A DNA stretch of 37,394 nucleotides from Saprospiraceae bacterium (GTDB lineage: Bacteria > Bacteroidota > Bacteroidia > Chitinophagales > Saprospiraceae): the NCBI GenBank assembly GCA_020629965.1, contig JAHDCG010000054.1:1-37394 (forward strand), in the 5' to 3' direction. The translations under genes and the position numbers were made by a program. Position 1 is the stretch's first letter, and the number at the start of each line of letters is the position of its first letter. Below, in pieces: positions 213 through 37,394 of the stretch. The notes under the pieces are model-generated. The model was not told where the DNA came from and did no database searches. It saw only the letters and a list, made by a program, of their open reading frames with translations.

Positions 213-1652
213 ATGATAAAGAACTTTTACGGAAGGAAGAAAGAAATTACAATTTTACGAGAAGCTCTGACAAGCTCGTAAGCAGAAATGATTTCGGTCA
301 TCGGCAGGCGAAGAGTAGGTAAAACATTTTTGATTAAAAAAGTGTACGAAAACCATATTGCTTTTCAAATGACAGGAACGCAAAATGCCCCGCGTACCGA
401 ACAACTGCAAAACTTTGCAATTCAATTGAAAAAATCCTCGGGCAGGACTCTGCCTTTACAAAAACCAAAAAATTGGTTAGAAGCATTTTTCTTGCTTTCG
501 GAATATTTGGACAGCAAACAAATCGACAAAGAAAAATCTGTGATTTTCTTTGACGAAGTGCCGTGGATAGCTACGTATAAATCGGGATTTTTACGCGGTT
601 TAAGCCGGTTTTGGAACAGTTGGGCTGTCGAAAAAAATATCGTAGTCGCTATTTGTGGTTCGGCGGCTTCGTGGATGATTAAAAAAGTAGTACACCACAA
701 AGGCGGTTTACACAACAGAATTACGCGTCAAATTAATTTGCGACCTTTCACTTTATACAAAACCGAAGAATACTTAACTCAACGCGGTATTCAACTCGAC
801 CGATATCAAATCATTCAGATTTATATGGCTTTGGGCGGTATGCCTTTTTACTTGAAAGAAATAAAAAAAGGGAAAAATGCATTACAAAATATCAATGACA
901 TCTGCTTTACCGCGAACGGATTGTTAAAAAACGAATTTCCGATTCTATATAATTCGCTTTTTGACCGAGCAAATCGTCACATCAGTATAGCTAAATTATT
1001 AGCTGTAAACCCAAAAGGCATGACACGCGATGCAATTGCTGTCAACTCAAAATTAACCAAGGGCGGCACACTTACCACAGTATTACAAGAACTTTCAGAG
1101 TCCGGATTTATTATGAGTTTTCGACCTTTCGGCAAAAAAAAGAAAGATACACTTTACCGTTTAACAGATGAATATTCTCTGTTTTACTTGCAATTTATCG
1201 AAGGTAAAAGTCTGGAAGGTGATAATATTTGGCATCATTTAAGCCAAACGCCGGCGTATAAAGCATGGAGCGGTTTTACTTTCGAGAGCATCTGCCTAAA
1301 ACACATTCCGCAAATTAAAAAAACTTTAAGTATTGCCGGAATTTATTCTCTCTCGTCCTCTTTTCATAAAAAGGGTACTGCCGATGAACAAGGCACACAG
1401 ATTGATTTGGTTATCGACCGGAAAGACCACGTTATAAATCTTTTCGAGATAAAATTTTACGATACGACTTTTACCATCAGTAAAAACTACGCGCAAAATC
1501 TGCGAGAAAAAATGCGCATCTTCAAAGAAACAACCGGTACATCCAAACAAATATTTTGGATATTTCTGACTACTTTCGGAGTAAATGAAAACGAACACAA
1601 CCGAAGTATAATTACGCAGGAGTTGACGATGGATGCGTTATTCAACCAATAA
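213..1652 (+). pseudogene. Full-length reading frame of the ATPase including the conserved N-terminal segment, interrupted by an in-frame TAA (279-281); possible nonsense-mutated gene or sequencing error
   Basis: Frame 213-281 translates to MIKNFYGRKKEITILREALTSS*. It is in the same frame as ATG 288 (213 and 288 are both multiples of 3). Read across the stop, the sequence ...FYGRKKEITILREALTSS-x-AEMISVIGRRRVGKT matches the canonical N-terminus of this family (F-x-G/D-R-x-x-E-L..L...... hhhhYGRRRVGKT). Confidence 0.45.
288..1652 (+). CDS. AAA+ ATPase of the PF01637/DUF234 'archaeal ATPase' family (ATP-binding protein), as called from the first ATG after an in-frame stop
   Basis: Walker A motif GRRRVGKT sits at residues 6-13. 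Walker B-like hhhhDE (VIFFDEVPW) follows about 80 aa later. Length of about 450 aa and a C-terminal DUF234-like region fit the family. Family members normally carry about 25 aa before the P-loop. That stretch is found in the same frame upstream (213-281) but is separated by TAA at 279-281. Confidence 0.75.
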   Translation: MISVIGRRRVGKTFLIKKVYENHIAFQMTGTQNAPRTEQLQNFAIQLKKSSGRTLPLQKPKNWLEAFFLLSEYLDSKQIDKEKSVIFFDEVPWIATYKSGFLRGLSRFWNSWAVEKNIVVAICGSAASWMIKKVVHHKGGLHNRITRQINLRPFTLYKTEEYLTQRGIQLDRYQIIQIYMALGGMPFYLKEIKKGKNALQNINDICFTANGLLKNEFPILYNSLFDRANRHISIAKLLAVNPKGMTRDAIAVNSKLTKGGTLTTVLQELSESGFIMSFRPFGKKKKDTLYRLTDEYSLFYLQFIEGKSLEGDNIWHHLSQTPAYKAWSGFTFESICLKHIPQIKKTLSIAGIYSLSSSFHKKGTADEQGTQIDLVIDRKDHVINLFEIKFYDTTFTISKNYAQNLREKMRIFKETTGTSKQIFWIFLTTFGVNENEHNRSIITQELTMDALFNQ

Positions 1653-1740: not shown

Positions 1741-1792
1741 ATTACTCACCGGGTGACTCACTTGTCCCTCAGGAAAGTCACTTTTTGAGTAA
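1741..1792. repeat. Copy 1 (expanded loop) of a nested-palindrome intergenic repeat family: TTACTCAC-(C/A)GGGTGACTC...AGTCAC-TTTTTGAGTAA
   Basis: Outer arms are ttactca and tgagtaa. Inner arms are gtgact and agtcac. Related copies lie at 6701-6741 and 31821-31881. Confidence 0.7.
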
Positions 1793-2054: not shown

Positions 2055-5000
2055 CTATTTAGCAATCACCACCTTCTCCGAGTACGTTTGACCCTCCGCA
2101 GTCACCTGCAAAAAGTAGAAACCGTCGGATAGTGCGCTGACGTTGACCGGCAGATTGGTTTCGCCGCTCGCCGTTACGTTGTAAGATTGCAAGGTGCGAC
2201 CGTCAACCGTGTGCAAAGTGACATTGACTTCCGTAGCGGTCGTCGTGTTCATGCGCACGTGAATGAAGTCCTGCGCAGGATTCGGGAATACCGAAACGCT
2301 CAAATCTTCCGTGACCGGCTCGAAGGTCGAGCTGACAACCTGACTCTCCACGACCGTACCGCGACCGGCGGGCGTCGCACAGGCTTCGTCGCCGTCCGCA
2401 CTGCTGACGCAGGCATCGCTCACGTAGTTTTTCATGTCCATAAACTCGAAGTCGTCGATGGCCCAACCGAAACCGGCACCGCCGGCGTTCGTACCGAACA
2501 TCCAACGCAGGTAAACTTCCTGACCCGCAAAGGCACTCATGTCGGCGTAAGAGGCAATCCAACCGTCAGAGTCACCCGAGAAGGCGTTCAAATTCGGAAC
2601 GACAAAAGTCTGGTATTGTACCTGCGCCGGGTAGTCGCCCCGGAAGAAATCCGCGCCGGCATCCTGCCATACGCTGCCCTCCAGAGGGTCTTCGTCGAGC
2701 GTCAACTGGAACAAACCGGCATCCGCACCCGCTTCGGTGTCATAGTTGTGGTAAAAACGAATGACCGGTTGATCACCGTCGATTAACAGACGGTCGATGT
2801 TCAACAAAGCATCCTGACTTTCTTCGTCCGGATTCGAGACAAAGAAAGAGTTGTTGCCGCTGTTTGACAATGCGTCCGTCAGTTGGAAGCTGTTTTCCAA
2901 ATCATCGTCGCTGAAAGTGTTGAAGAAATAGTTGCTCACGTCGCCTTCCATATCGTCGATAAAACGGGTGACGGAGAAAATATCGGGGTCGGTCGCAAAT
3001 TTGTAAGTCAATACAATTTCATCTTCAAAAGCCATCGTGCCGAGATCGAAGCTGACCATATTGCCGTTGACCGTACCTGCGATGCTGCCGCTGCCGGCTA
3101 CATAAGTCGTTCCTTCCGGAATTTCGTCGGTCACGACTACGCCGTCAACCGGGTCGGGTTTGTGATTGATAACCGTTACGGTTACGTCGATATCGTCGCC
3201 GGCATCTACCAACGGCGTTACTTCTTTGCTGATTTTCAACTCTTGAATACAAGTCGGACGCGGCTCGAAGTCTTCCGATTGGTCGGTAGCCGAGTTAGGG
3301 CTGCCTTGGTCGGCAAAGAAACCGGCACCGCGACGCGCGAATACTTCCCAAATCAAACACTGATTAGCACCGTCGTATAGTGCCATATCCGCCGCCAAAA
3401 TCGCATCCCGACCGTCTAAAAAACCGGGCGAACAAGCCTGATTTTTCATACCTTCAAAAACTAAGCGAACAGCTTTGTTGTTACCGCCGGTGCCTTCGTA
3501 AACGTCCGGGTCCCAGCCGTCTTGCTCCACAAATGCCCAGTACAAATCCCAAATCATGTTACACCACACCTCACCGATGGCATGTACCCCGGTGTTGCCC
3601 GCTACGTCGCCGTAAGTCAGGGGGCTGATGTTCATATCGGTAGAGTAAGGGAAACGGCGAATACCGCGACCGTCATTCGGCTGACGCTGTACGAAAGTAC
3701 CGACGCCGCGACGCATATCGCCCGTGTCGCCTTCCTGCGTACCCAAGACCAAGCCCATGAAATCGGACCAGCCTTCGCCCATTTGCTCCGCATTGCCGAG
3801 AGAACCTTGATTGGGACCGCAAGTCAAACGAATAGAAATACCGTGACCGAATTCGTGCGCGATGATACCGTTGTCGAAGTCACCGTCGAGTTTTTCCGGA
3901 CCGGTCATGACCGGCGCGGAGATAGTTGCCTGTAAACCGTCGTCCCCCGCAAATTCGCGGATAGAAGCACAGTCGATACTCTTCATCGACACTACGGGGA
4001 TGGTCACGGAGTTACCGTCGGCACCCGCTGCCATATTGATAGTCGCATCTTCAAAATTACAAATAATGACACCTACCGCACCCGCTTGCTCGGCAGCCAA
4101 GGCTTTAGAACCGAACTCACAACCGCCGCGGTCGATGAGGGCAATTTTACCCGTCAATTCCGTTACGTTTTGGATAGCTTCGCAAGCGTCCGTGCTGTAA
4201 GGGTTAAAAATTTGGTCATTAACGATGGTCACACCCGCCGTCACGCCCGGCTCGCCCGGTAAAATTTGCGCACCCCAGTCCGCAGTACCCGTATCGTAAG
4301 CACCGCCGACGCTCGCCGGCTCATTCACCTGCAAAAACTGCGAACCGCCGCCGGCACCCCACACGAACATATTGATGCTCGGAGATGTACCGTCGTTGGC
4401 GTGCGAGTAGAAAGCATTGTCTTCCTGACCGGCATCCGCGCCCGCCTGTGCGAGTGCGTCGATGGGGTCGCCGCCGATACCGCCGCCGCCGTAGTTATTT
4501 TCTTGAAAAGCACCTTCGGAGGTGTTCATACCGTTGGCGAAAGCGAAATCGTGCATGATGTTAGTCATGTAAAACAAGTTCGTTACCGCAGCGGGAATAA
4601 TCTCTTCCGGCTCCGCATCCGCATCGTAGGGCGGGTCGAAAATCAGGTCATCACCGCCGTCGGGTTCGTCGCCTGCCGAGCTTTGGTTGTCGTCGCGGTC
4701 TTCCCACGCCCAGGTGTTGTTACCGCGTGTGATGGTAAATTCGGGACCGTCCACCCCGTCGGTGTCGTGCCAACCGAAAGGAGAAGCGGGCAGGTAAGCG
4801 GGATTTTGTACTACGGAGCGGTCACCGTGTGCGGGGCTTTCCAAAGGCAAAGCAAATACGGTGTACTGTGCATTGTCTTCGGCGAGCATTTCTACGGCTG
4901 CCGCTTGCGTCGTCAGAGCTTCTTGTACGTTGCCGAGACCTGCGGGCTTTTCGCGGCAGGCTGCGTCGTGGTTGTGGTAAGCATCGTTGGTGTGTGCGCA

Positions 5001-5630
5001 GTAAATTGTCCAATTTTGTTGTGCCAACACTTCGCCGTTCATGGCGTCGATGCGCATACTCCAACGGTCGTTGTCGGTTTTGAGGTCGATGACCATATCC
5101 CACGCGAGGCGGACGCTGCCGTCTTTGAGTTCTTGGTATTGCAGTTCGGTTTCGATGTCGAGCTTCGCAAAATCATCTTTCGCAAATGTCACCTGACGGC
5201 TGCCGTTTTCACGAATGACAGTTAAAGCGACACCGGGCGATTGCAAATGTGCCAAAGCCGCCTGTACCGCCTGCTCGGCGTCGAGTGCCGGCTCACCGGA
5301 ATTGATTTTTGTGTTCAACTCGGCGACAAAGCGTTTTCCGACAAAGAAAACCTCGCCTTCCGCGTCGATAGAGACGTTGATAACGGCTTGGTTGATTTTA
5401 ATGCCGGCGTATTGCTGCTGCAAATAAACGCGGCTGATGCCCGTTCTTGCGTCGGAAGTAATTGCGCTGACGTGCATGTTTTGCACGTCGTCTTTCGTCA
5501 AGCCCCACTCGGCGTGATTGGTATTGACCTCGGCGAGGGCAATGTTAAGCGGCGATTGCACTTGAGCGAATGCCGAACCGCCCGCCAAAAGCAAGGCAAA
5601 GAGCAGCATTTTTGTAAAAACTGATTTCAT
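2055..5630 (-). CDS. Secreted M36 (fungalysin-family) zinc metallopeptidase with FTP-type propeptide region, inserted PA domain and T9SS type-A C-terminal sorting domain
   Basis: N-terminal signal peptide MKSVFTKMLLFALLLAGGSAFAQ. HEXXH zinc site in GIIAHEFGHGIS with the downstream third ligand motif GEGWSDF, as in M36. PA-domain signature KIALIDRGGCEFGSKALAAEQAGAVGVIICN lies upstream of the active site. The C-terminal ~80 aa (...VFPNPAQDFIHVRM...LQVTAEGQTYSEKVVIAK) has the T9SS CTD pattern. Confidence 0.85.
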   Translation of the reverse strand: MKSVFTKMLLFALLLAGGSAFAQVQSPLNIALAEVNTNHAEWGLTKDDVQNMHVSAITSDARTGISRVYLQQQYAGIKINQAVINVSIDAEGEVFFVGKRFVAELNTKINSGEPALDAEQAVQAALAHLQSPGVALTVIRENGSRQVTFAKDDFAKLDIETELQYQELKDGSVRLAWDMVIDLKTDNDRWSMRIDAMNGEVLAQQNWTIYCAHTNDAYHNHDAACREKPAGLGNVQEALTTQAAAVEMLAEDNAQYTVFALPLESPAHGDRSVVQNPAYLPASPFGWHDTDGVDGPEFTITRGNNTWAWEDRDDNQSSAGDEPDGGDDLIFDPPYDADAEPEEIIPAAVTNLFYMTNIMHDFAFANGMNTSEGAFQENNYGGGGIGGDPIDALAQAGADAGQEDNAFYSHANDGTSPSINMFVWGAGGGSQFLQVNEPASVGGAYDTGTADWGAQILPGEPGVTAGVTIVNDQIFNPYSTDACEAIQNVTELTGKIALIDRGGCEFGSKALAAEQAGAVGVIICNFEDATINMAAGADGNSVTIPVVSMKSIDCASIREFAGDDGLQATISAPVMTGPEKLDGDFDNGIIAHEFGHGISIRLTCGPNQGSLGNAEQMGEGWSDFMGLVLGTQEGDTGDMRRGVGTFVQRQPNDGRGIRRFPYSTDMNISPLTYGDVAGNTGVHAIGEVWCNMIWDLYWAFVEQDGWDPDVYEGTGGNNKAVRLVFEGMKNQACSPGFLDGRDAILAADMALYDGANQCLIWEVFARRGAGFFADQGSPNSATDQSEDFEPRPTCIQELKISKEVTPLVDAGDDIDVTVTVINHKPDPVDGVVVTDEIPEGTTYVAGSGSIAGTVNGNMVSFDLGTMAFEDEIVLTYKFATDPDIFSVTRFIDDMEGDVSNYFFNTFSDDDLENSFQLTDALSNSGNNSFFVSNPDEESQDALLNIDRLLIDGDQPVIRFYHNYDTEAGADAGLFQLTLDEDPLEGSVWQDAGADFFRGDYPAQVQYQTFVVPNLNAFSGDSDGWIASYADMSAFAGQEVYLRWMFGTNAGGAGFGWAIDDFEFMDMKNYVSDACVSSADGDEACATPAGRGTVVESQVVSSTFEPVTEDLSVSVFPNPAQDFIHVRMNTTTATEVNVTLHTVDGRTLQSYNVTASGETNLPVNVSALSDGFYFLQVTAEGQTYSEKVVIAK

Positions 5631-5933: not shown

Positions 5934-6563
5934 CTACCGCGTCCACGCCCGCCAATCTTTCTCCTCCGGAAAAATATCGTACAAATCAATTTTCAAAGCG
6001 GGCAACAAAGCGGATTTTAAATTTTCACCTAAAGTAAAAAACGGCAAACGCGTCGTATACTTACCGGTTTTTTCGTGTAATGAGTAAACAATGATGAAAA
6101 AATGCAGCGGGTCGATAATCCAATATTCTTTAACGCCGGCGGCTTCGTAGAGCAGAAATTTATCTTTCATTTCTCGTTTGGCGTTGCCTTGATTTAAAAT
6201 TTCGACCGCTAAATCCGGTATGCCGATAAGTCCGTCTTTGTCAAATTTATCATCATCGAAAGTCAAAGAAATATCGGGCTGCACGACAATGTCTAATTTT
6301 CCTTTTTCTATTCCCTTGACTTCTCTCTGCAAATGCACATCGAAAGGCGCAGGCAGTAAGTCAAATCGACGTTCTTGACTATACAAATGCTGTGCAATTC
6401 GGAAGATGACCTGCCCCGAAACGTACTGATGCAAAGTACCCGTTTTCGGTATTAAAACGGGTCTGCCGTGCAGTAATTCTACGCGTTCTTCAAACTGCCA
6501 CGCGCAATAATCCGCATAGGTGTATCTGCCGGAAAAATCCAATTGGTCGAGCGATGTAAGCAT
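5934..6563 (-). CDS. Uma2-family (DUF820) PD-(D/E)XK-type putative restriction-endonuclease-like protein
   Basis: Length 209 aa. Characteristic core ...PDLAVEILNQGNAKREMKDKFLLYEAAGVKEYWIIDP (D...E-I-L-S/N-x-x-N/T...K...Y...G..EYWIIDP). Confidence 0.8.
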   Translation of the reverse strand: MLTSLDQLDFSGRYTYADYCAWQFEERVELLHGRPVLIPKTGTLHQYVSGQVIFRIAQHLYSQERRFDLLPAPFDVHLQREVKGIEKGKLDIVVQPDISLTFDDDKFDKDGLIGIPDLAVEILNQGNAKREMKDKFLLYEAAGVKEYWIIDPLHFFIIVYSLHEKTGKYTTRLPFFTLGENLKSALLPALKIDLYDIFPEEKDWRAWTR

Positions 6564-6700: not shown

Positions 6701-6741
6701 AATTACTCACAGGGTGACTCGAAGTCACCTTTTGAGTAATT
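6701..6741. repeat. Copy 2 of the nested-palindrome repeat (aattactcacagggtgactcgaagtcaccttttgagtaatt)
   Basis: Outer 9-bp arms are aattactca and tgagtaatt. Inner 6-bp arms are ggtgac and gtcacc around tcgaa. It lies in the Uma2/tas intergenic spacer. Confidence 0.75.
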
Positions 6742-6783: not shown

Positions 6784-7824
6784 ATGCAAAAAAATCAACT
6801 CGGAAATACCGACCTTCAAGTTTCTAAAATCTGCCTCGGCACCATGACCTTCGGCGAGCAAAACACCGAAGCCGAAGGACACGCACAACTCGACTGTGCC
6901 TTAGACCACGGCGTTAATTTCATCGACACGGCAGAAATGTATTCCGTGCCGGGTCGGGCGGAGACGCAGGGCAGCACCGAGCGCATTATCGGCACCTGGC
7001 TCAAAAATCGCAGCGACCGCGACCGCATTATCTTAGCAACAAAAGTGACCGGTCCCTCGGCGGGTCTGCAAAAATATATGCGTCCGCTCGACTTCAAACC
7101 CGCGTCGATACGCACGGCTTTGGACGGCAGTTTCGAGCGATTACAAACGGACTACATCGACGTTTATCAACTGCACTGGCCCGAGCGCGAAGCCAACTTT
7201 TTCGGCAAACGCGGTTACAAACACAATCCCGATAATGAATGGGAAGACAACTTCCTCAGTATCATCGAAACGATGACCGCTTTGATAAGAGAGGGCAAAA
7301 TCAGACACTGGGGTATCAGCAACGAAACCGCTTGGGGCGCGATGCGTTACCTGCACCTCGCCGATAAACACGACCTGCCCCGCCCCGTCAGCATCCAAAA
7401 TCCTTACGGTTTGCTCAATCGCACTTACGAAGTCGGCTTGGCGGAGGTCAGCATCCGCGAGTCATTGAGTCTGCTGACTTATTCTCCGATGGCGTTCGGT
7501 CTGTTGAGCGGAAAATTTCATAAAAAGCAAGACAACGAAAACGCCAGACTCAATAAATTTAAACAAATGTCGCGCTACAACTCGCAGCAGTGTTGGAATG
7601 CCACCGAGAAGTACCTCGCCATCGCCGAAAAACACGGCATGACCCTCGCGCAGATGTCCTTGGCATTCGTCAACGACCGCCCGTTTAACACCTCGACCAT
7701 CATCGGCGCGACGAATTTGGAACAACTGAAAGAAAATATCGGCAGCGCGGAGATTTCTTTGTCGAAAGAAGTGCTGAAGGAAATCGAAGAAGTACAGGAG
7801 CTCATTCCGAATCCTGCGCCGTAG
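6784..7824 (+). CDS. tas: NADP(H)-dependent aldo/keto reductase, Tas-type
   Basis: 346 aa. Strong collinear motif agreement with E. coli Tas: LGTMTFGEQNTEAEGHAQLDCA, RYLHLADKHDLPRPVSIQNPYGLLNRTYEVGLAEVS, and the C-terminal ...IPNPAP. Confidence 0.88.
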   Translation: MQKNQLGNTDLQVSKICLGTMTFGEQNTEAEGHAQLDCALDHGVNFIDTAEMYSVPGRAETQGSTERIIGTWLKNRSDRDRIILATKVTGPSAGLQKYMRPLDFKPASIRTALDGSFERLQTDYIDVYQLHWPEREANFFGKRGYKHNPDNEWEDNFLSIIETMTALIREGKIRHWGISNETAWGAMRYLHLADKHDLPRPVSIQNPYGLLNRTYEVGLAEVSIRESLSLLTYSPMAFGLLSGKFHKKQDNENARLNKFKQMSRYNSQQCWNATEKYLAIAEKHGMTLAQMSLAFVNDRPFNTSTIIGATNLEQLKENIGSAEISLSKEVLKEIEEVQELIPNPAP

Positions 7825-8024
7825 GGTTGGGTGACAGGTGGTGGTTGATAGGTGGTAGAAGGCTACGGGGTTTTGCTTACCTTTGCGGGAGGTTGAGGGG
7901 TTTGGAGGTTGGGGAGTTGGGCGGTTGGGGAAAGCACGGAGTTGTAGAGACGTTGCACTGCCACGTCTTACTATGAAAAAACGAAAGCGGCGAAATAACC
8001 GAAAAAATAAACAAAGAAAGGACT

Positions 8025-8530
8025 CAAAATTTTAAAGATGAAACCACAGACTCAAGCCCGGAGAAAGTTCCCCGCTCCGGGGTTAGGGGTTTAGAAACAC
8101 AGGACAGAGCCGTACTAAAAACCCCCGACCCCGGAGCGGGGAGAACATATTTTCACAACTGAAATTCGTCTTGAATTAAAATTCGATTGCAAAAGGGGAA
8201 TCTCAAATTTTACTGTTTTACAAAAATCAGAGAACCAAAAATTTTAAAGATGAAACCACAGACTCAAGCCCGGAGAAAGTTCCCCCGATTCGGCCTGTCC
8301 CGACTTCAGTCGCGGAGGTTAGGGGTTTAGAAACACAGGACAGAGCCGTACTAAAAACCCCCGACCCCGGAGCGGGGAGAACATATTTTCACAACTGAAA
8401 TTCGTCTTGAATTAAAATTCGATTGCAAAAGGGGAATCTCAAATTTTACTGTTTTACAAAAATGAGAGAACCAAAAATTTTAAAGATTAAATCACAGACT
8501 CAAGCCCGGAGAAAGTTCCCCCGATTCGGG
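8025..8530. repeat. Tandem direct repeat, unit about 212 bp, about 2.3 copies (8025-8236, 8237-8472 with a ~24-bp insertion, and a truncated third copy 8473-8530). Each full unit carries a long GC-rich stem-loop
   Basis: Copy 1 hairpin: ccccgctccgggg (8070-8082) pairs with ccccggagcgggg (8129-8141). An inner stem ggggttt/aaacccc sits in the loop. In copy 2 the left arm is disrupted by an insertion (cccccgattcggcctgtcccgacttcagtcgcggagg). Copy 3 retains only cccccgattcggggg. The array lies between tas and obg. Confidence 0.8.
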
Positions 8531-11426: not shown

Positions 11427-11475
11427 GTGAGGCTTACTAACCTTTCGGAAGGTTAGTAAGCCTCACAGATTTTTC
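11427..11475 (+). terminator. Rho-independent terminator (18-bp perfect stem, loop tcgg, T-run) directly after the REC-TrxR-like gene; also module A of a BOX-like modular repeat
   Basis: Stem gtgaggcttactaacctt, loop tcgg, stem aaggttagtaagcctcac, followed by agattttt. Confidence 0.65.
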
Positions 11476-11629: not shown

Positions 11630-12367
11630 TTATTTCGCTTTTTGAACATCACGCATAAATTTTCTCCTTTTTTCGAAAAAATCATTTGTTTTCTTTCTGC
11701 CCAAAAACCATTGTTCTTCCGTAAACTCAAAAATTTCAACATCACTTTTTCTTTCGGGAGGAAAATCCTCTTCGTCATATACGGGATTCGATAAATAAAC
11801 TCTGAAACCTATAGTAGTATGAGATTCTCCCCATAACATTCCTTCATCGGGAAAGATATAGTTCCCAATCTTTTCTGCTTTAATTCTTCTCAAACAGTTT
11901 TCTACACGATTAGAATTAATAATTGCTAAATCAATTTGATACTCTTTATCATCTTTCACAGGTAGTACAAAATCACTGTGGACACCTATACTAATTTCGT
12001 AAATAGTTAAATCCAAATGTAAGATTATAAGTTTTTCCTCCAATTTTTCGCTTAGCTTAGTATTTGTATCACCAAATAAAAGTAAATATTTCAAGTTTTC
12101 ATTACAAATTGACTCATCCATCAAAGATTTAATAAAATTATCTTCTGATATAAAAATCTCCTGTCTTGGTGCCGGATGAAAACTAGCATGCACTTTGTTG
12201 AGAAAGAATAGCTCGCACTCTTTTAAAATTTTTAAAACTTCTATAAGGATTTCAATTCTCTTCTTGACGTCATGTATGGTATTTTTTCTTTTGAAACCTT
12301 GACTATAAAAATCCTTATCCTTTAAGTCAATAGTCCATACTCCAAGAGCCTCGTTATATTTTTTCAT
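11630..12367 (-). CDS. Hypothetical protein (245 aa), strongly AT-rich relative to the surrounding DNA; probable horizontally acquired cargo gene
   Basis: Long uninterrupted ORF on the minus strand. By eye its GC is about 30% against 55-60% in the flanks. It is bracketed by homologous repeat modules. No recognisable catalytic motif. Confidence 0.6.
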   Translation of the reverse strand: MKKYNEALGVWTIDLKDKDFYSQGFKRKNTIHDVKKRIEILIEVLKILKECELFFLNKVHASFHPAPRQEIFISEDNFIKSLMDESICNENLKYLLLFGDTNTKLSEKLEEKLIILHLDLTIYEISIGVHSDFVLPVKDDKEYQIDLAIINSNRVENCLRRIKAEKIGNYIFPDEGMLWGESHTTIGFRVYLSNPVYDEEDFPPERKSDVEIFEFTEEQWFLGRKKTNDFFEKRRKFMRDVQKAK

Positions 12368-12387: not shown

Positions 12388-12658
12388 CAGTTGGCGCGTG
12401 GTTTTACCTCGTGCCTTTCACTTTCCCGTCTCCGGCGGATTTTGAATACAGATATTAATTCTGCTTTTACCTTTCCGCCGGAGGCGGGCTAATGTATCAC
12501 ACCTTGAGAGGCAGGCGAGGCAAGAGCCTCGCGCGAACGGTTTGAGTTCAAGACTTACTAACCTTCCGAAAGGTTAGTAGGCCTCACGCCGGCCGATACT
12601 TATTCGGTTTCCCGGATAGCCCATCGACTAAAGTCGATGCTACGGCACAGCCACCTCT
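12388..12658. repeat. Right modular repeat block (C 12388-12421, unique hairpin insert 12422-12500, D 12502-12540, A 12552-12587, B 12614-12658)
   Basis: Direct-orientation homologues of the left block. The insert carries a 14-bp imperfect inverted repeat (ccgtctccggcgga ... tccgccggaggcgg) around an AT-rich 38-nt loop. Confidence 0.75.
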
Positions 12659-16162: not shown

Positions 16163-16337
16163 AAGCGAGATGTTAGATTTTAGATTTTAGACGTTAGACT
16201 GCTTACGCCACCTAAAATACCACCGACACGATTGCCTCAAGGAGAAAAAACCAAAAACCAAAAATCAACTACACGGTCAAGAAAAAATCGACCGGCAACC
16301 ATCAACCATCAACTACCAACCATCAACTAACAAAATT

Positions 16338-17747
16338 ATGTCAGGAACCTTAATCGTTGCAGGCTTCATTCTTTTTGTAGCCTTTTTACTCGTCCTCTTC
16401 TTCATCAGTCGCTTCAAACGCTGCCCCTCCGACAAAATCTTAGTCGTGTACGGCAAGACCGGCGGCGACTCCTCCGCCAAGTGCTACGCCGGCGGTGCGG
16501 CCTTTGTGTGGCCCGTTATTCAGGACTACCAATACCTCGATTTAACGCCTTTGAGTATCGACGTCAACTTGCAGGATGCGCTTTCCAAGCAAAATATCCG
16601 CGTGTCGGTGCCTTCGCAGTTTACCGTCGGTATCAGCAACAAACCCAACCTCATGCTCGCGGCGGCGGAGCGTCTTTTGGGCTTGCAGCGACAAGACATC
16701 AGCTCGCTTTCGCACGACATTATCATGGGTCAAATGCGCCTCGTGATTGCCAACATGGACATCGAAGAGCTGAACACCGACCGCGATAAATTTGTCGAGT
16801 CCGTCTATCGCAACGTCGGCGACGAGTTGCACAAAATCGGTTTGGAACTGATTAACGTCAACGTCACCGACATTCAGGACGAGTCAGGCTACATCGCCGC
16901 GCTCGGTAAAGAAGCCGCCGCCAAAGCCATTAACGACGCCCGCGTCAAGGTCGCCAAAGAGGTGCGTACCGGTAGCATCGGTGAGGCCGAAGCACAGCAA
17001 GACCAACGGATTAAGGTATCGGACGCCAACTCCCGCGCCGAAATCGGGGAAGCCAAAGCCGATGCCCTCTCCAAGCAAGGTAAAAACGAATCCGCCATCA
17101 ATATCGCCAACTCCGATGCCGAGCGCGACATTGCCATCGCCGAGTCGGAAAGAAAAGCCATGGCAGCACGAAAAGTAGCGGCCGCCAAAGCACTCGAAGA
17201 GGCTTATGTGGCAGAGCAGTCTGCGGAATTGGCGCGGGCAAAAATGGAAGCAGCCCGCAAGCAAGCGGACGAAATCGTCGAAGCAGATATTCAACGCCAA
17301 AAGTTGGTTATTCAGGCGCAGGCAGAGGCGGAGCGCAAGCGCGAAATCGCACGCGGTGAAGCCGACGCGACCTTGGCCCACTTTGCCGCACAGGCAAAGG
17401 GTATGGAAGAACTGCTGAAAAAACAAGCCGAGGGTTTTCAAAAACTCGTCGATGCCGCCGGCGGTGACCCGCAAAGTGCCATCAACTACCTGATGCTCGA
17501 CAAACTGACGGAACTGACGCAAATCCAAACCTCCGCCATCAAAGAACTCGACATCGACAAAGTAGTCGTCTATGACAGCGGCAACGGTCAGGGCGTCGGC
17601 AATTTTGTCAAAGGTCTGTACGGTATGATGCCCCAACTCAATGACTTTTTGAGTCAAAGCGGAATGACTTTGCCGCAGGCACTGGTACAAAATAAAGAGG
17701 TCGAAACGGCAAAAGTCGTGGTGACGGAGAAGCCGAAGGAGAAGTAA
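16338..17747 (+). CDS. Flotillin-like SPFH/band-7 protein (FloT/YuaG type)
   Basis: N-terminal TM anchor, an SPFH domain, and a long Ala/Glu/Lys-rich coiled-coil 'flotillin' region (EA repeats). It pairs with the NfeD gene upstream. Confidence 0.85.
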   Translation: MSGTLIVAGFILFVAFLLVLFFISRFKRCPSDKILVVYGKTGGDSSAKCYAGGAAFVWPVIQDYQYLDLTPLSIDVNLQDALSKQNIRVSVPSQFTVGISNKPNLMLAAAERLLGLQRQDISSLSHDIIMGQMRLVIANMDIEELNTDRDKFVESVYRNVGDELHKIGLELINVNVTDIQDESGYIAALGKEAAAKAINDARVKVAKEVRTGSIGEAEAQQDQRIKVSDANSRAEIGEAKADALSKQGKNESAINIANSDAERDIAIAESERKAMAARKVAAAKALEEAYVAEQSAELARAKMEAARKQADEIVEADIQRQKLVIQAQAEAERKREIARGEADATLAHFAAQAKGMEELLKKQAEGFQKLVDAAGGDPQSAINYLMLDKLTELTQIQTSAIKELDIDKVVVYDSGNGQGVGNFVKGLYGMMPQLNDFLSQSGMTLPQALVQNKEVETAKVVVTEKPKEK

Positions 17748-28642: not shown

Positions 28643-29527
28643 TTACAGAAACGCAAACACCAAATACTCACCGAAAAACAGTACCCAAATAAACCGGTAA
28701 TAATTGAAAACGGAGTCTTGATTTTGTAAATTCGTGCGCAACATACCGAGCAATAATAACAGCAGAAAAAAACCGTGTACACCCGAAAAAAGCAAACTGT
28801 CCACCTGTACTTTAAACAGAAACGGAGCCAAAATACACAACACAAACAGCGTCATCATAATTACATTGCCGAAGGCAAAAACACGCCGCCGACCTAAGCG
28901 CACGGATAAGGTACGCACCGCAAATTTCGCGTCGCCCTCAGTATCGGGCAGGTCTTTAAACAGGGCAATAATGAGACTGTAAACCACAATCACTACCGTC
29001 AACAACCACACCAAAGGCGTAATGCTGTGCGCCCCGTTGATGTGCGCGTGAAAGTGCAAAAACAGCAACAAATTGACAATAATGCCGCGCACGGCAATGA
29101 TGCAAAACGCCGCCCAAAACGGATATTTTTTCAAGCGCAGCGGCGGCAGCGAATAAGCAATGCCGAGTGCCAAACTCAACAACACCGTCCACAGCAAATA
29201 ACCTCCGATGAAGACCGCCAAAATCAATGACACCGCCAAACCGATACCGACAATCAGCTTTCCCGTTTGCAGAGAAAACGCGCCCGAAGCTAACGGCAGA
29301 TAGGGTTTGTTGATTTTATCGATTTCAATATCCGTGATTTGATTCAAACCGACGATGAAAATATTCGCGCCGAGGCAGGCGATAATCGTCAATCCCAACA
29401 GCGAACCGTACATCTCCGTGCCGTCGGCGTACGACAGCGCAATGAGCCACAAGGTGACAATGCTCAACGTCGTGCCGATGATGGTGTGCAGACGCGAAAA
29501 ACGGATGAAATTGAGGAGGAAATGCAA
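28643..29527 (-). CDS. UbiA-superfamily prenyltransferase of the homogentisate phytyl/geranylgeranyl-transferase (HPT/VTE2-like) type
   Basis: Nine predicted TM segments. First Asp-rich motif in the HPT-specific form NQITDIEIDKINKPYLPLASG (N-Q instead of N-D, and IDK-x-NKP-x-LPL). Second motif KDLPDTEGD. Confidence 0.8.
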   Translation of the reverse strand: MHFLLNFIRFSRLHTIIGTTLSIVTLWLIALSYADGTEMYGSLLGLTIIACLGANIFIVGLNQITDIEIDKINKPYLPLASGAFSLQTGKLIVGIGLAVSLILAVFIGGYLLWTVLLSLALGIAYSLPPLRLKKYPFWAAFCIIAVRGIIVNLLLFLHFHAHINGAHSITPLVWLLTVVIVVYSLIIALFKDLPDTEGDAKFAVRTLSVRLGRRRVFAFGNVIMMTLFVLCILAPFLFKVQVDSLLFSGVHGFFLLLLLLGMLRTNLQNQDSVFNYYRFIWVLFFGEYLVFAFL

Positions 29528-29583
29528 ATAAATGTTTATTTGTTGATTCGGTTATTTGTTTATTTGGCGGCAGACGCCGGCGG

Positions 29584-30426
29584 TTATTTTTCTCCTTGCA
29601 GCAAGGCAAATTTCAGCAGACCGCGCTTGTAGCCTTCCGTCATATACCGCATCGTCCACGCGCCTTTGAGAGCGGGGGCACCGGCTTTGAGCAAGCCCGT
29701 GACGCTTTTCCAGCTAAAGGCGGATTTAATCACGGCTTTCCAAAAAGGAGCGACTTCATCCGTCCAGTCTTCGGTTTTGATATTTTTAAAGCCCGTTTGT
29801 TGCGCAAATTCGGCGTATTCCGACATCGGTATCATTGGCGGCAGATGGTAATTTTTGTAGATTTTTTGCAGCAGTTTTTGCTCGTCGTCGGTCAGTTCAC
29901 TTTGCGGCGCGCGAACGCACCAAGTGACCATCAGCAGCTTTCCGCCGGGCTGTAAAAGGTCGTAAAACATTTGTACCAGACCGCTTTTATCCGCGATGTG
30001 TTCCGCACTTTCGAGCGACCAAATGAGGTCTTTGTTCGGCTGTTCCGTATCGCCCAAAGTCATCATGTCCTGCACGCGAATCTCGACTTTGTCCTGCAAA
30101 TTTGCCCGCCGATTGTAGTGCGCCGCCCGCTCCGCCTGCACCGAGCTGAGAGTGACGCCCGTTACGTTTGCGCCGTATTTATGCGCTAAATACCGCGCAC
30201 TGCCGCCGACTCCGCAGCCCGCGTCGATGATGCGCTGCGGTCGCTGCACCTCGCCCCATTCGAGCAACCTTTCCACCAATTCGACCTGCGCCTCGCGGTG
30301 ACTGACGGCGGGTTTACCCTCCGTACCGTACCAGCCGTGATGCATGTGCTCGCCCCACACATCGAGCCACAGCGGCGTACTGACGTCGTAGAAGTTTTTG
30401 ATGTCGGCGTTTAATGTGTTCGGCAT
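29584..30426 (-). CDS. SAM-dependent methyltransferase of the gamma-tocopherol methyltransferase (VTE4-like) family
   Basis: Start taken at the internal Met (MPNTLNADIKNFYD...). The track ORF extends to 30558 through a low-complexity leader. Family-specific motifs: FYDVSTPLWLDVWGEHMHHGWY, SAM motif IIDAGCGVGGSARYLA, WSLESAEH, GGKLLMVTWC, and C-terminal VAPFWKAVIKSA...KGAWTMRYMTEGYKRGLLKFA. Confidence 0.8.
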   Translation of the reverse strand: MPNTLNADIKNFYDVSTPLWLDVWGEHMHHGWYGTEGKPAVSHREAQVELVERLLEWGEVQRPQRIIDAGCGVGGSARYLAHKYGANVTGVTLSSVQAERAAHYNRRANLQDKVEIRVQDMMTLGDTEQPNKDLIWSLESAEHIADKSGLVQMFYDLLQPGGKLLMVTWCVRAPQSELTDDEQKLLQKIYKNYHLPPMIPMSEYAEFAQQTGFKNIKTEDWTDEVAPFWKAVIKSAFSWKSVTGLLKAGAPALKGAWTMRYMTEGYKRGLLKFALLQGEK

Positions 30427-30533
30427 AATTCCTTTTTTTTTTGAATTGTTGGAGTGGTTGGAGTCGTTGGAATGGTTTGAGTTGTCGCGCCCGGGCAACC
30501 GGCAACCGGCAACCGACAACCGACAACTAAAAA

Positions 30534-31478
30534 TTACCGTTTTTTCCCCAACCACCAAGCCAATGCCACCACCCCGACGGCGAGCGCACCGAGTACGGTT
30601 TTCTGCTCCGTGTTGAGGGTTTCGCGCATTTCGGGCGGCAGATGTTTTTGGCGGTCGCCGTGTACGAGATAGCCGACCAAAGCAATCGGAATGAAGATAA
30701 AACCGGCGAGCGAACCGAGCGCAACCCGACCAATCATCAGGGCGGTGCGGGCGACGGTCATTTCTTCGTCCTGCGGTTTTAAGGCGGACACGACGGCAAC
30801 CGAGTCACCGGGGGCGGGCTTGGGTTTGGGCTTAGCGTCCATTGGTTTGTCACCGGCGATGGCGATGCCGAAGTGCGTTTTGCCGGGCGTAAACCAGTGC
30901 GGGTCCACATAGACGTAGCGGATATTTTCAAAGCCTGCTTCTTCGTAAAATTTGAAATAATCTTTTTCGGGCGGAAAGAGCATCCAGGTCGTCGCGAAAA
31001 AGCGACCGACGGGATTTCCGGGTTCTATCGGACCGATGAGCAAAGCCGTGCCGCCGGGTTTGACGACGCGAAAAGCCTCATCGACGCCCCGCTGCGGGTC
31101 GGGCCAATACTCGATACTGCCGGCACTCACGTAGCGGTCGAAAGTATCGTCCGGGTAAGGAATATTTTCGGCGTCGCCGATGCGAAAAGTACAATCCTGC
31201 AGGTCGGGTTTCGCCTTTGCCTTCGCCATTTGTTGGTGGCTTTGATCCACGCAGAACACATTGTGCGCGGGCACGCGCTTGACAATGCCCTGCGTCGTAA
31301 AACCGGTGCCGGAGCCTACGTCGATAACTTTCAGATTCGGGTCGTCGAGTTTGCCGATGTCCAGTGATTCTTCGCGCATTCTGACCGTCCAAAAGAGGGG
31401 GTTGACGAGGTTGTCGTAGAAGTTGGAGAGGAAATAGTAGAACCAGTAGGCTTCTTTTTTATGTTGTACTAATTGCAT
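30534..31478 (-). CDS. SAM-dependent methyltransferase of the MPBQ/MSBQ methyltransferase (VTE3-like) family with C-terminal membrane anchor
   Basis: YYFLSNFYDNLVNPLFWT, VIDVGSGTGFTTQGIVK, DQSHQQMAKAKAK, GDAENIPYPDDTFDRYVSAGSIEYWPDPQRG, GGTALLIGP, and RFFATTWMLFP, collinear with plant VTE3/APG1. Two C-terminal TM helices. Confidence 0.8.
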   Translation of the reverse strand: MQLVQHKKEAYWFYYFLSNFYDNLVNPLFWTVRMREESLDIGKLDDPNLKVIDVGSGTGFTTQGIVKRVPAHNVFCVDQSHQQMAKAKAKPDLQDCTFRIGDAENIPYPDDTFDRYVSAGSIEYWPDPQRGVDEAFRVVKPGGTALLIGPIEPGNPVGRFFATTWMLFPPEKDYFKFYEEAGFENIRYVYVDPHWFTPGKTHFGIAIAGDKPMDAKPKPKPAPGDSVAVVSALKPQDEEMTVARTALMIGRVALGSLAGFIFIPIALVGYLVHGDRQKHLPPEMRETLNTEQKTVLGALAVGVVALAWWLGKKR

Positions 31479-31528
31479 TTTTTTTGAGACTTTAGACGTT
31501 AGATTTTAGATGTTAGAATTCCGAACGG

Positions 31529-31783
31529 TCAGATTTTAGACTTAGCATTGTTCTTCTGCATAAGCGGTGCAACTTCGATTTCGGCGGCGGTCGCGTCGCG
31601 GTGCGTGATGGTCGTAACGGGGCAAATCGCCTCGCAAACCATACAGGCAATATCGCAAACGGTATTGACGGCGATGGTATCGAAGTCACTGATGAACGGC
31701 TCGGGCTGCGGACAAACCGCCACGCAGGCTCCGCAGTTTATGCAGGCATTCCAGCCGATATCGAAAAGGACGGGTTTGTTCAT
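31529..31783 (-). CDS. Small 2x[Fe-S] ferredoxin
   Basis: Start taken at the internal Met (MNKPVLFDIG...). CINCGACVAVCP (CxxCxxCxxxCP) and CDIACMVCEAICP cluster motifs. The longer track ORF (to 31888) would read through the 61-bp palindromic repeat. Confidence 0.75.
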   Translation of the reverse strand: MNKPVLFDIGWNACINCGACVAVCPQPEPFISDFDTIAVNTVCDIACMVCEAICPVTTITHRDATAAEIEVAPLMQKNNAKSKI

Positions 31784-31820
31784 TTTTTTGTTTTGTTCTG
31801 TTTTTAATCGGGTGTGGGAA

Positions 31821-31881
31821 GGTTGCCGTTTTTTACTCACAGGGTGACTCAAAGTCACCTTTTGAGTAAAAAACGGCAACC
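31821..31881. repeat. Copy 3 of the nested-palindrome repeat, here a 61-bp near-perfect palindrome between the GGR stop and the ferredoxin start (inside the operon)
   Basis: ggttgccgttttttactca-c-agggtgact-caaa-gtcacc-ttt-tgagtaaaaaacggcaacc. Outer stem 19 bp, inner stem 7 bp. No flanking U-tract on either strand. Confidence 0.8.
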
Positions 31882-31891
31882 GATACACCCA

Positions 31892-33070
31892 TCAAATCTT
31901 CTTATACTCCGAATCCGGACTAAAATAATCCGACATAATCTTATACAACTTACGATTGCGCTCTTCCAAATCTTCGGTTTTAAAAATTTCGGTTTTCTCG
32001 TCGTAGAGCTTCCACATTTTATTGCCGAGCTTTTCGAGCCAATTATCTTGATAGCCTTTTAGGTCTGCTTTTTTAAATGCGCCGCCGCTGTTGATTTGTT
32101 CGACCAAAAAATCCGCCGCGATTTTGCCACCGCTGAGCGCCGTGTGGATGCCGCCGCCCGTTATCGGGTTGACGTGGCGCGCGGCGTCGCCGACGAGGAC
32201 TAAATTATCGGCGTACTGCGTTTTCAGCGGTGCCGCGAGGGGGACGCCGCCGCCCTGTATTTCTAAGATGCGGGCATTTTTAAAGCGGTCGCCGAAGAAA
32301 GATTGTTTGATAAATTTGTCGAGTTGCTCGCGGGCGTTGAGTTCCGTAACGGTCGGGATGACCCCGAGTCCGATTTCGGCGTAGCCGTGCCCTTTGGGGA
32401 AGACCCAAGCGTAGCCGCCGGGTGCCCATTCGTGACCGGTGATGATTTCCAGCAAGCCTTCCGTTTCGACTTTATCGACGATAAATTGCAGACAACTCGC
32501 CAGCTCCGTCAGTCTGATTTGAGTGCGCAGTCCCGCCCATTTTCCGACCACGGATTGCAGACCGTCCGCACCGACGAGGACTTTACAGCGCAGGGTCATT
32601 TTTTCGTTGAAGCGGCGCACATCGACCTCGCAGGTGCCGTCGGGCTGCGGGCGGTAGCCGAGTCCTTCCGTTTTGAGGTAGGTTTCCGCACCCGCTCTTT
32701 CGGCGAGGGTCATCAGATGCCGATCGAAGCGGCGGCGGTCCACAACGTAGCCGAGGGGTGATTTATCCGCGCTTCCGCCGTATTTTTCGGGGGCGAGTCG
32801 GCGGTAATCAATCGTTTTTTTATCGCCTTTTTCATTGTAAATACCGAAGCCGTAGATGGGTTCCAAAATAAATTCCGCGTCGGGTCTGATGCCGACTTCT
32901 TCCAGTCCGTGCCGGCTGACGGCGCCGCTGCACTGAATGGGTGCGCCGAGTTCCTGCTTTTTATCGAGCAGTAAGACTTGCAAGCCCCGATTTGCCGCGA
33001 GTCGTGCGACGGTAGCCCCGGCGGGTCCGCTGCCGATGATGATGAGGTCGTAAAGTGTATTTTCGGACAT
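31892..33070 (-). CDS. Geranylgeranyl reductase family flavoprotein (GGR/ChlP-like, FAD-dependent)
   Basis: N-terminal FAD fold DLIIIGSGPAGATVARLAANRGLQVLLLDKK. PIQCSGAVS (PxxCGxxxS). GADGLQSVV and GDAARHVNPITGGGI motifs typical of the TIGR02032-type GGR family. 392 aa. Confidence 0.85.
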   Translation of the reverse strand: MSENTLYDLIIIGSGPAGATVARLAANRGLQVLLLDKKQELGAPIQCSGAVSRHGLEEVGIRPDAEFILEPIYGFGIYNEKGDKKTIDYRRLAPEKYGGSADKSPLGYVVDRRRFDRHLMTLAERAGAETYLKTEGLGYRPQPDGTCEVDVRRFNEKMTLRCKVLVGADGLQSVVGKWAGLRTQIRLTELASCLQFIVDKVETEGLLEIITGHEWAPGGYAWVFPKGHGYAEIGLGVIPTVTELNAREQLDKFIKQSFFGDRFKNARILEIQGGGVPLAAPLKTQYADNLVLVGDAARHVNPITGGGIHTALSGGKIAADFLVEQINSGGAFKKADLKGYQDNWLEKLGNKMWKLYDEKTEIFKTEDLEERNRKLYKIMSDYFSPDSEYKKI

Positions 33071-36884: not shown

Positions 36885-37061
36885 CGGCTTATCCGCAGCG
36901 GCGGCATTTATCAACTCTGCCTGCGCTGCCGTAAAAGAAACAGAACCGCCGGTAGTCCCCGCTGCCGTCACGGATTTCTTCGCTTTACAACTCATTAAAA
37001 GCAAAAGCAGCAGCAAAAATGTAAAACCCCGCAAAAGTCTAAAATCAACGTACATCATAAA

Positions 37062-37394
37062 AAATCATATAAAATCAGCGTCAGAAGTTACAGCCACAAA
37101 ATTTTACGAAGTAAAATCAATCATAAAACATCATAACTCTCCTAAAAATCAGAGTTAAAAACAAAGTCACACGAGCAATCAGCGCAAACCATAAAAAAAT
37201 CATATAAAATCAGCGTCAGAAGTTACAGCCACAAAATTTTACGAAGTAAAATCAATCATAAAACATCATAACTCTCCTAAAAATCAGGGTCAAAAACAAA
37301 GTCACACAAGCAATCAGCGTAAACCATAAAAAATCATACAAAATCAGCGTCAGAAGTTACAGCCACAAAATTTTACGAAGTAAAATCAATCATA
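37062..37394. repeat. Tandem direct repeat, unit about 134-135 bp, at least 2.5 copies, running off the window end; abuts the def upstream region
   Basis: The landmark 'cagcgtcagaagttacagcc' recurs at 37076, 37211 and 37345. Copies differ by only a few substitutions. Each unit has a small hairpin attttac-gaag-taaaat. Confidence 0.85.

Follow-up and report, generated by a model that had tools for sequence, protein, structure and literature searches.

In E. coli, REP/BIME elements are short palindromic extragenic repeats found to either side of a single Y1/HUH gene, and the encoded enzyme is represented in the PDB by model 4ER8 (E. coli "REP associated tyrosine transposase bound to a REP hairpin"). 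REP hairpins that lie inside operons act on the mRNA, as between malE and malF in E. coli. Newbury and colleagues reportedly found in 1987 that E. coli REPs stabilize upstream mRNA, and a REP within ~15 nt of a stop codon is said, after work by Liang, Rudd and Deutscher in 2015, to lower translation of the upstream gene. Both the RNA decay machinery and translation initiation differ between Bacteroidota and E. coli.

A REP unit measures ~20 to 40 nt. A conserved tetranucleotide at the 5' foot, GTAG or GT[AG]G (or CGTC), is used as a criterion for a REP (PMC3733652, PMC6006769). Among the TnpA-REP enzymes, those of subclass 2.4 occur in Cyanobacteria and Bacteroidetes, are ~194 aa long and carry the motifs NH[IFV]H and YIxNNP; REPs placed in frame within tnpA are unique to this subclass (Quentin et al. 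2018, PMC6006769). The words that flank genes of RAYT group 4 have a modest copy number of ~14 per replicon (Bertels et al. 2017, PMC5581495). In REPINs, conserved REPs form the ends of a longer hairpin whose center varies (Bertels and Rainey 2011, PMC3116915).

Here, we describe a 61-nt nested palindrome that lies between a geranylgeranyl reductase (GGR) gene and a ferredoxin gene in a 37,394-nt stretch of DNA from a Saprospiraceae bacterium (assembly GCA_020629965.1, contig JAHDCG010000054.1; the whole stretch is referred to below as the window). We assign a probability of roughly 0.8 to the reading that this hairpin is a REP-type element whose core is the cognate hairpin of a RAYT-like Y1/HUH family (TnpA-REP subclass 2.4, RAYT group 4). 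The 61-nt copy between the two genes is most likely a tolerated selfish insertion and no purpose-built RNA switch.

As with REP/BIME elements and their RAYT in E. coli, a short extragenic palindrome is found on both sides of a single Y1/HUH gene, and the predicted fold of the protein, which has HUH and Tyr motifs, best matches 4ER8. The 37-nt core (consensus TTACTCA-NN-GGGTGACT-loop-AGTCACCC-NN-TGAGTAA) differs from the E. coli REP in several respects: it forms a perfect 17-bp stem with a 3-nt loop, whereas the REP stem is imperfect and bulged; its foot is TTAC...GTAA, with GTGA within the arms, in place of 5' GTAG; and it is low-copy in most genomes, with one sequence shared phylum-wide instead of a species-specific one. 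At this foot, none of the canonical REP tetranucleotides (5' GTAG, GT[AG]G or CGTC) is present. The protein shares with subclass 2.4 an NH[IFV]H motif, a sequence similar to YIxNNP, a length of ~200 aa, its occurrence in Bacteroidetes and an in-frame REP between the HUH and Tyr motifs, but the core fits neither of the REP types published for that subclass, "long" (three G-C foot pairs) or "double foot" (5' GT[AG]G ... C[TC]AC 3'). Like a REPIN, the core is readable as two inverted 17-nt half-units around a short spacer; in contrast to REPINs, it is the apex of the long hairpin that is conserved and its base that is not. Recognition of single-stranded DNA by a Y1/HUH enzyme (here predicted) without target-site duplication is also a property of the subterminal hairpins of IS200/IS605 elements (IS608, ISDra2), but the core is not part of an insertion sequence with two distinct ends, and the hairpin would disperse alone.

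Structure and operon setting of the hairpin

The palindrome reads GGTTGCCGTTTTTTACTCA-cag-GGTGACT-caa-AGTCACC-ttt-TGAGTAAAAAACGGCAACC. A repeat finder returned two 29-nt arms (31821-31849 and 31853-31881) that are 93% complementary across a 3-nt gap. A 3x3 internal loop separates the perfect 19-bp outer stem from the 7-bp inner stem, which is capped by 3 nt of loop. One A-T pair can form within the internal loop, and the + strand, unlike the - strand, adds a G.T wobble. The 61-mer folds as single-stranded DNA with -27.9 kcal/mol on the + strand (z -10.6) and -27.1 kcal/mol on the - strand (z -11.8). For the mRNA-sense (-) strand, RNA folding in a 126-nt context gave -53.6 kcal/mol against -21.7 +/- 3.5 kcal/mol for shuffled sequences (z = -9.2; none of 200 shuffles was equally stable). 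This predicted fold extends beyond the palindrome through the pairs GGGUGU/ACACCC and UUUGAU/AUUAAA, which would bring the GGR stop codon inside the structure. Neither strand has a U-tract after the hairpin (- strand UUCCCACACCC, + strand GAUACACCC), and a sigma-70/terminator scan called no promoter-like or terminator-like site there. The Bacteroidota -7 motif TAnnTTTG is absent at or after the hairpin, and a search of the whole window with Rfam 15 at the gathering threshold matched 0 families.

The operon comprises genes for GGR, ferredoxin, two methyltransferases and a UbiA prenyltransferase. From the GGR stop codon (TGA, 31894-31892) to the ferredoxin start (ATG, 31783-31781), the spacer measures 108 nt, and the ATG at 31783 is backed by homologues that begin MNKPVLFD or MNQPVLFS. 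The hairpin starts 10 nt past the GGR stop and ends 37 nt ahead of the ferredoxin ATG; the leader between the hairpin and the ATG is A-rich and, by RNA folding, unstructured. Coordinates of all features are collected in Table 1.

Most of what the initial annotation had read from these letters holds: the sequence and the repeat finder bear out a 61-bp nested palindrome with a 19-bp outer and a 7-bp inner stem, the stop and start coordinates confirm the 108-nt spacer, the computed folding energy agrees with a very stable hairpin in the mRNA, and the statement that this is not a classical terminator is correct, given the missing U-tract and the empty scan. Its description of the element as the third copy of a repeat is likewise right, with the core word recurring at 1742, 6703 and 31833 together with mirror arms. 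The placement of the hairpin "immediately upstream" of the ferredoxin start has to be amended, as a distance of 37 nt is outside the normal ribosome footprint.

Table 1. Features of the hairpin locus, copies of its core in the window, and the corresponding junction in relatives
Feature	Coordinates	Strand	Context or basis
Core copy 1, 51-nt form	1742..1792	+	Convergent intergenic: ATPase 288-1652 (+) / M36 peptidase 2055-5630 (-)
Core copy 2, 37 nt	6703..6739	+	Divergent intergenic: Uma2-family 5934-6563 (-) / aldo/keto reductase 6784-7824 (+)
Core copy 3, 37 nt	31833..31869	+	Between co-directional GGR and ferredoxin genes
Whole 61-nt nested palindrome	31821..31881	.	Sequence reading, repeat finder, folding
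Left outer arm GGTTGCCGTTTT	31821..31832	.	Sequence unconserved in other copies
Right outer arm AAAACGGCAACC	31870..31881	.	Contains CGGCAACC heptamer-type motif
Extended imperfect RNA structure, mRNA strand (predicted)	31803..31896	-	RNA fold
GGR, geranylgeranyl reductase family flavoprotein (upstream gene)	31892..33070	-	
84-aa 4Fe-4S ferredoxin (downstream gene)	31529..31783	-	Start supported by homologues
GGR-ferredoxin junction, L041 and L042			Stop/start overlap (ATGA)
GGR-ferredoxin junction, L040			58-nt spacer, heptamer-periodic sequence, no hairpin
GGR-ferredoxin junction, L039			82-nt spacer, unrelated nested palindrome

Copies of the core in the window

The core of the GGR-ferredoxin hairpin, TTACTCACAGGGTGACT-caa-AGTCACCTTTTGAGTAA, is one of three in the window, where an 18-nt core word occurs three times against a chance expectation of 0.01. 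Copies 2 and 3 differ by one loop base only, and both have CCTTTTG in the right arm where the phylum consensus has CCCTGTG; a metagenome scan for this variant gave 0 matches. Copy 1 has 17 nt inserted at its center, and its right arm is more degenerate. The copies fold with z = -6 to -12, and all three are intergenic, a density of 3 per 37 kb. They share the + strand orientation while the neighboring genes lie on differing strands, and uniform orientation despite mixed gene strands is not expected of an element selected at the RNA level. In 6.7 kb beyond the window, no further core copy was present; there was a single chance half-site, within a coding region. Neither the three window copies nor the external copies described below are surrounded by direct repeats or target-site duplications.

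A palindrome family across Bacteroidota

Genomes (one per species) and JGI metagenomes were scanned with the gapped pattern TTACTCANNGGGTGACT-N(3-27)-AGTCACNNNNTGAGTAA, in which 28 bases are fixed. The two scans found 80 core loci, 34 in genomes and 46 in metagenomes. All named loci are from Bacteroidota, and they span distant lineages: Bacteroidales, Rikenellaceae, Paludibacteraceae, Prolixibacteraceae, Saccharicrinis, Sunxiuqinia, Lentimicrobiaceae, Chitinophagales, Saprospiraceae and Lewinellaceae. A single REP sequence can thus stay almost unchanged across a phylum. The 51- to 53-nt form with a 17-nt spacer, seen in window copy 1, recurs at Saccharicrinis loci, and the 17-nt half-units of the core are also found singly and in 22-nt tandem arrays.

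The positions that the pattern leaves free vary together. Of 65 distinct 37-nt copies, 61 show exact complementarity both at the free dinucleotide and at the four unfixed bases of the right arm, and the dinucleotide comes in six types (CC/GG in 24 copies, CG/CG in 15, GC/GC in 13, TC/GA in 4, CA/TG in 3 and GG/CC in 2). Covariation alone is no proof of selection for a hairpin, since template-switch "correction" in DNA palindromes can also yield it.

The copies are mostly intergenic: 76 of 84 lie between ORFs (100 aa or longer), and of the other 8, 6 fall inside the RAYT gene. Intergenic copies are often placed a few nucleotides past a stop codon. Where an intergenic copy is flanked by two ORFs (60 copies), the neighbors are co-directional in 36 cases, convergent in 16 and divergent in 8, and the core may point with or against transcription. 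The RAYT gene aside, neighboring genes across the 80 loci are unrelated. Elsewhere, exact copies under the strict pattern number only 1 to 3 per genome, and the core family is low-copy, unlike the classical high-copy REP. This number fits the modest copy number of the words that flank group 4 RAYT genes.

The RAYT-like gene beside the core

ORF clustering followed by HMM searches identified a protein of ~205 aa whose gene adjoins or overlaps the core in 15 of the 80 external loci, a sample in which the 28-base pattern over-represents the best-conserved copies and thus possibly the RAYT-adjacent ones. At four loci (L005, L007, L010, L013) there are hairpin copies upstream of, within and downstream of the gene, and at L019 there are copies upstream and within. 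The internal copy is in frame, encodes THGVT.SHPVS and sits between the HUH and Tyr motifs. The hairpin variant also tracks its gene: around the RAYT gene of L090, the hairpins are of the CGATGACT variant.

The protein carries the motifs NHFH and YIxxNP (YIHxNP), with residues N53, H54, F55, H56, Y157, I158, H159, N161 and P162 invariant in 34 sequences. It matches Pfam Y1_Tnp weakly and the NCBIfam model REP_Tyr_transpos (REP-associated tyrosine transposase, NF047646) with E values of 1e-11 to 1e-16; the scores of 43 to 59 bits stay below the curated cut-off of 80 bits of this model, which is an equivalog model built on other subclasses. In a profile search against the PDB, the sole match was 4ER8. 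Structural comparison of an AlphaFold model (pLDDT 85.9) again placed 4ER8_A at the top (E = 2.6e-7; TM 0.67, target-normalized), followed by the IS608, ISDra2 and IS200 transposases. The only poorly modeled block was the REP-encoded insert, predicted as a low-confidence surface loop. By its motifs, length, host taxa and in-frame REP, the gene matches TnpA-REP subclass 2.4, which corresponds to RAYT group 4. No RAYT gene was found by six-frame HMM search of the window or in the adjoining 6.7 kb, which together make up 44 kb of this genome.

The hairpin as an insertion between GGR and ferredoxin

The GGR encoded in the window shares no more than 77% identity with any other database GGR, its nearest homologues coming from Saprospiraceae and Lewinellaceae. 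Among four relatives examined, three (L039, L040, L042) keep the operon, and the fourth (L041) has the GGR-ferredoxin pair only. Their junctions consist of an overlap, a plain spacer or another palindrome (Table 1), which argues that the hairpin of the window is a lineage-specific insertion, as judged by sequence comparison. Short-read contigs of the same organism give a further view of the element: contig L037, with 19 similar places, terminates inside it, and contig L036 runs through a variant copy into a different neighbor gene. Stopping at an element or jumping through it is how assemblers treat repeats.

Proposed mechanism and alternative explanations

If the element behaves like those of E. 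coli TnpA-REP and the IS200/IS605 transposases, the palindrome would extrude as a single-stranded DNA hairpin, and the RAYT would bind it, cut and rejoin DNA at its foot and so scatter copies into intergenic DNA. Once inserted between GGR and ferredoxin, the element would fold into a very stable hairpin in the polycistronic mRNA without terminating transcription. By analogy with E. coli REPs, the hairpin might block 3'-to-5' exonucleases and favor the upstream GGR segment, and it may raise the stability of GGR mRNA or perturb termination of GGR translation. The insertion would also replace the stop/start overlap found in relatives and thereby uncouple translation of ferredoxin, which could begin from the open, A-rich leader 37 nt downstream, where the start would stay accessible. 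Any such RNA effects would be by-products of a tolerated insertion and not its purpose. Of the functions that the initial annotation had offered, the simple one, a REP/MITE-like insertion tolerated within an operon, is the one that gains support, from a phylum-wide palindrome that is tied to a RAYT-type gene and missing from the relatives' spacer. RNA processing or stability as the reason for the element is unsupported, as the core occurs between genes of every relative arrangement (convergent, divergent, co-directional) and points either way, and the case for a translational attenuator is weak when the hairpin ends 37 nt before the ATG and is followed by an unstructured leader.

As an alternative hypothesis, the hairpin could be a cis-acting mRNA element under selection, whether or not recruited from a repeat, that serves as a processing site, as a barrier to 3' exonucleases or as a decoupler setting the ratio of GGR to ferredoxin. 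It resembles the malE-malF type of REP hairpin in being stable, lacking a U-tract and lying between apparently co-transcribed genes near the upstream stop codon. Here, the RNA fold is far more stable than its shuffles, the gene pair is apparently co-transcribed with no promoter motif between its members, the hairpin begins 10 nt past the GGR stop codon, which the extended fold encloses, and effects on upstream mRNA and on translation near stop codons are those that E. coli REPs are said to have. We nevertheless regard this hypothesis as unlikely. The hairpin is not conserved in the same operon of the four relatives, the same core recurs in unrelated contexts and in both orientations to transcription, the single G.T wobble favors the + strand when the mRNA is the - strand, and Rfam holds no match. 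An atypical or factor-dependent terminator or attenuator between the two genes would likewise account for a strong hairpin in the spacer and for the T-runs inside its stem, but we consider it highly improbable, as there is no U-tract on either strand and no call by the scan, the flanks of the family, with T-rich 5' and A-rich 3' sequence, have the wrong polarity for a terminator, and relatives couple the two genes by overlap.

Dyad symmetry is also what would be expected of an operator that a dimeric or tetrameric transcription factor binds as duplex DNA, with TTACTCA/TGAGTAA and GGGTGACT/AGTCACCC as half-sites and the window copies as a regulon, and copy 2 does lie in a divergent promoter region. 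Free positions need not covary to keep pairing in a protein operator, however, and the neighboring genes are unrelated over 80 loci save for the RAYT gene; on these two grounds, the operator was rejected. Many copies, moreover, follow stop codons by a few nucleotides or lie between convergent genes, and some are within the RAYT coding sequence, which leaves this reading barely credible. The element could otherwise be a MITE or other non-autonomous element of a non-Y1 transposase, or a palindrome whose spread needs no enzyme and relies only on recombination or template switching. The 44 kb of this genome without a RAYT gene and the degeneration of the window copies relative to the consensus would suit that origin. 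We judge it very unlikely, though, because the core repeatedly and specifically accompanies a RAYT-like gene, flanking it at both ends, lying inside it and changing in step with it (CGATGACT at L090), and its copies lack target-site duplications and any shared terminal repeats beyond the palindrome. The missing target-site duplications in particular contradict a MITE of the DDE type.

The REP-type reading provides a consensus with which a Bacteroidota REP linked to RAYT subclass 2.4 can readily be searched for. The kind of element, a REP with its RAYT, is already known; the phylum-wide core is a new member of it. For annotation of the GGR-ferredoxin-methyltransferase-prenyltransferase cluster, it means that the hairpin should be counted as a conserved control element only if transcript data support this. 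Two leads also emerge, the frequent growth of palindromic flanks and a recurrent cas9-RAYT-cas1 gene order.

Proposed growth of the outer arms

In the window copy, the core is extended by 12 bp on each side. Similar perfect palindromic extensions of the flanks reach at least 3 bp in 18 of 85 copies and at least 8 bp in 6, with a maximum of 26 bp (L024); the expected number of copies reaching a 3-bp extension is ~1 to 3 of 85, allowing for the T-rich 5' and A-rich 3' flanks. The long arms of the window copy and of L021, L024, L028, L031 and L049 have no sequence in common, and a larger conserved element that would include the arms was rejected on this ground. A pre-existing terminator hit in its loop by the core was rejected as well: pairing reaches the core, no leftover loop bases are present, and the polarity is wrong, with flanks that are T-rich upstream and A-rich downstream.

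We propose instead that the outer arms formed locally, one flank having been copied in inverted form by fold-back priming or template switching at the hairpin. In the window, the CGGCAACC motif of the right arm occurs seven times on the + strand and twice on the - strand, one of the latter being the left arm itself, and the right arm resembles heptamer-type tracts that occupy other + strand spacers. This distribution suggests that the right arm may be the original flank and the left arm its inverted copy. The palindromic arms (12 bp here and up to 26 bp elsewhere) might then record hairpin-primed DNA synthesis at a nicked REP, a mode of palindrome growth undescribed for REPs, which we weigh below jointly with a speculation on the nuclease.

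RAYT genes between cas9 and cas1

In at least 10 type II-C loci of Bacteroidota, a member of the RAYT family is located between cas9 and cas1-cas2. This cas-linked set includes four of five homologues that had been picked solely for the length of their contigs. In the literature, we found nothing relevant on a link between RAYTs and CRISPR or on transposases encoded between cas9 and cas1. We considered, and rejected, a relationship of the hairpin to the CRISPR repeats of these loci; the array repeat of L093 (GTTGTATCAAAG...) is unrelated to the hairpin.

We speculate that the hairpin could be the dispersed footprint of a CRISPR-linked single-stranded DNA nuclease, and that the RAYT and its hairpins might serve the adaptation module as a functional accessory instead of hitch-hiking. 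Taken jointly with hairpin-primed growth of the arms, this is a tentative proposal to which we give a small chance of being right. A functional cas9-RAYT-cas1 linkage, should it prove to be one, would tie HUH hairpin nucleases to CRISPR adaptation. The Cas9 proteins of the cas-linked RAYT loci are only 25 to 33% identical, and it is because the shared gene order spans such wide Cas9 divergence that the enzyme and its hairpins could be a functional accessory.

RAYT-like gene within type II-C CRISPR-Cas loci

The type II-C loci of many divergent Bacteroidota carry the RAYT-like Y1/HUH gene, together with flanking hairpins, between cas9 and cas1-cas2 (L005, L007, L019, L027/L072, L030, L066, L090, L092, L093 and L098-L100). 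Among these RAYT-carrying loci, Cas9 proteins share 25-33% identity and Cas1 proteins 53-60%. The cas9-RAYT-cas1 order recurred in four of five further RAYT homologues, which were picked solely by how long their contigs were. Cas-linked members are scattered across the RAYT tree, and comparison of the hairpin with the CRISPR repeat showed the two sequences to be unrelated. A literature search on RAYT genes between cas9 and cas1-cas2 found no paper.

Palindromes and half-sites

The 17-nt half of the main REP-type element may be an independent unit, because 22-nt units carrying the left half-site alone (TTTTACTCAGCGGGTGACCCTA) are repeated in tandem at the element-bearing locus L002, and because additional half-sites adjoin full copies in L005, L006 and L010. 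The L002 series is broken by a masked run and closed by one complete palindrome.

In the closest relative (L039; geranylgeranyl reductase [GGR] 77% identical), the GGR-ferredoxin spacer holds a different nested palindrome, GGAGGACAGACA-ttcc-TGTCTGTC ... GACAGACA-ggag-TGTCTGTCCTCC, in which two small hairpins together make one long hairpin. This spacer appears to offer palindromic repeats a permissive place to land. In a second relative, L040, it holds a heptamer-periodic tract of the kind present in intergenic spacers of the window. L036, a contig from a short-read assembly of the window's own organism, runs from the 3' end of GGR through a variant element copy (TTACTAAAAAGGTGACTTTGAGTCACCCTGTGATTAA) into a different, 925-aa gene; either the genome has a fourth copy at another site, or the variant reflects a strain difference.

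A second hairpin family in the window, GTGAGGCTTACTAACCTT-tcgg-AAGGTTAGTAAGCCTCAC, is arranged as inverted pairs, with a foot (TTACTAAC/GTTAGTAA) similar to that of the main element (TTACTCAC/GTGAGTAA). Its hairpins, accompanied on each side by about 200 nt of repeated blocks, surround an open reading frame of 245 aa for which a Pfam search returned no match.

Features and their coordinates
Feature	Locus	Position	Strand	Detail
cas9	L007	1582-6078
RAYT	L007	6330-6953
cas1	L007	7043-8000
Half-site array	L002	1402-1659
Nested palindrome	L039	3680-3745
GGR junction	L036	2420-2470
Second-family hairpins	window	11427-11466, 12551-12587
Flanked ORF	window	11630-12367	-
GGR cluster	window	28643-33070	-	GGR, small 4Fe-4S ferredoxin, two SAM methyltransferases, UbiA prenyltransferase
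Heptamer-periodic tracts	window	16167-16198, 16277-16343, 30491-30543, 31472-31517
Heptamer-periodic tract	L040	3690-3730
Long tandem repeat	window	8010-8529		212-236-nt units; internal G+C-rich hairpins 8069-8142, 8355-8378
Long tandem repeat	window	37043-37394		135-nt units; reaches window's end

GGR gene cluster and non-coding repeats

The GGR cluster appears to encode a Bacteroidota pathway, either of the prenylquinone or tocopherol-like type or for saturated isoprenoids. Its two methyltransferases are UbiE-like and CMAS/tocopherol-MT-like. GGR, ferredoxin and the first methyltransferase are conserved in L039, L040 and a further relative, L042, and the whole cluster through UbiA is present in L042.

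Long tandem repeats occupy two stretches of the window's non-coding DNA. Intergenic spacers also contain heptamer-periodic tracts of the TTAGAYR or CNNCAAC type, whose orientation is constant on the + strand, independent of the strand of adjacent genes.
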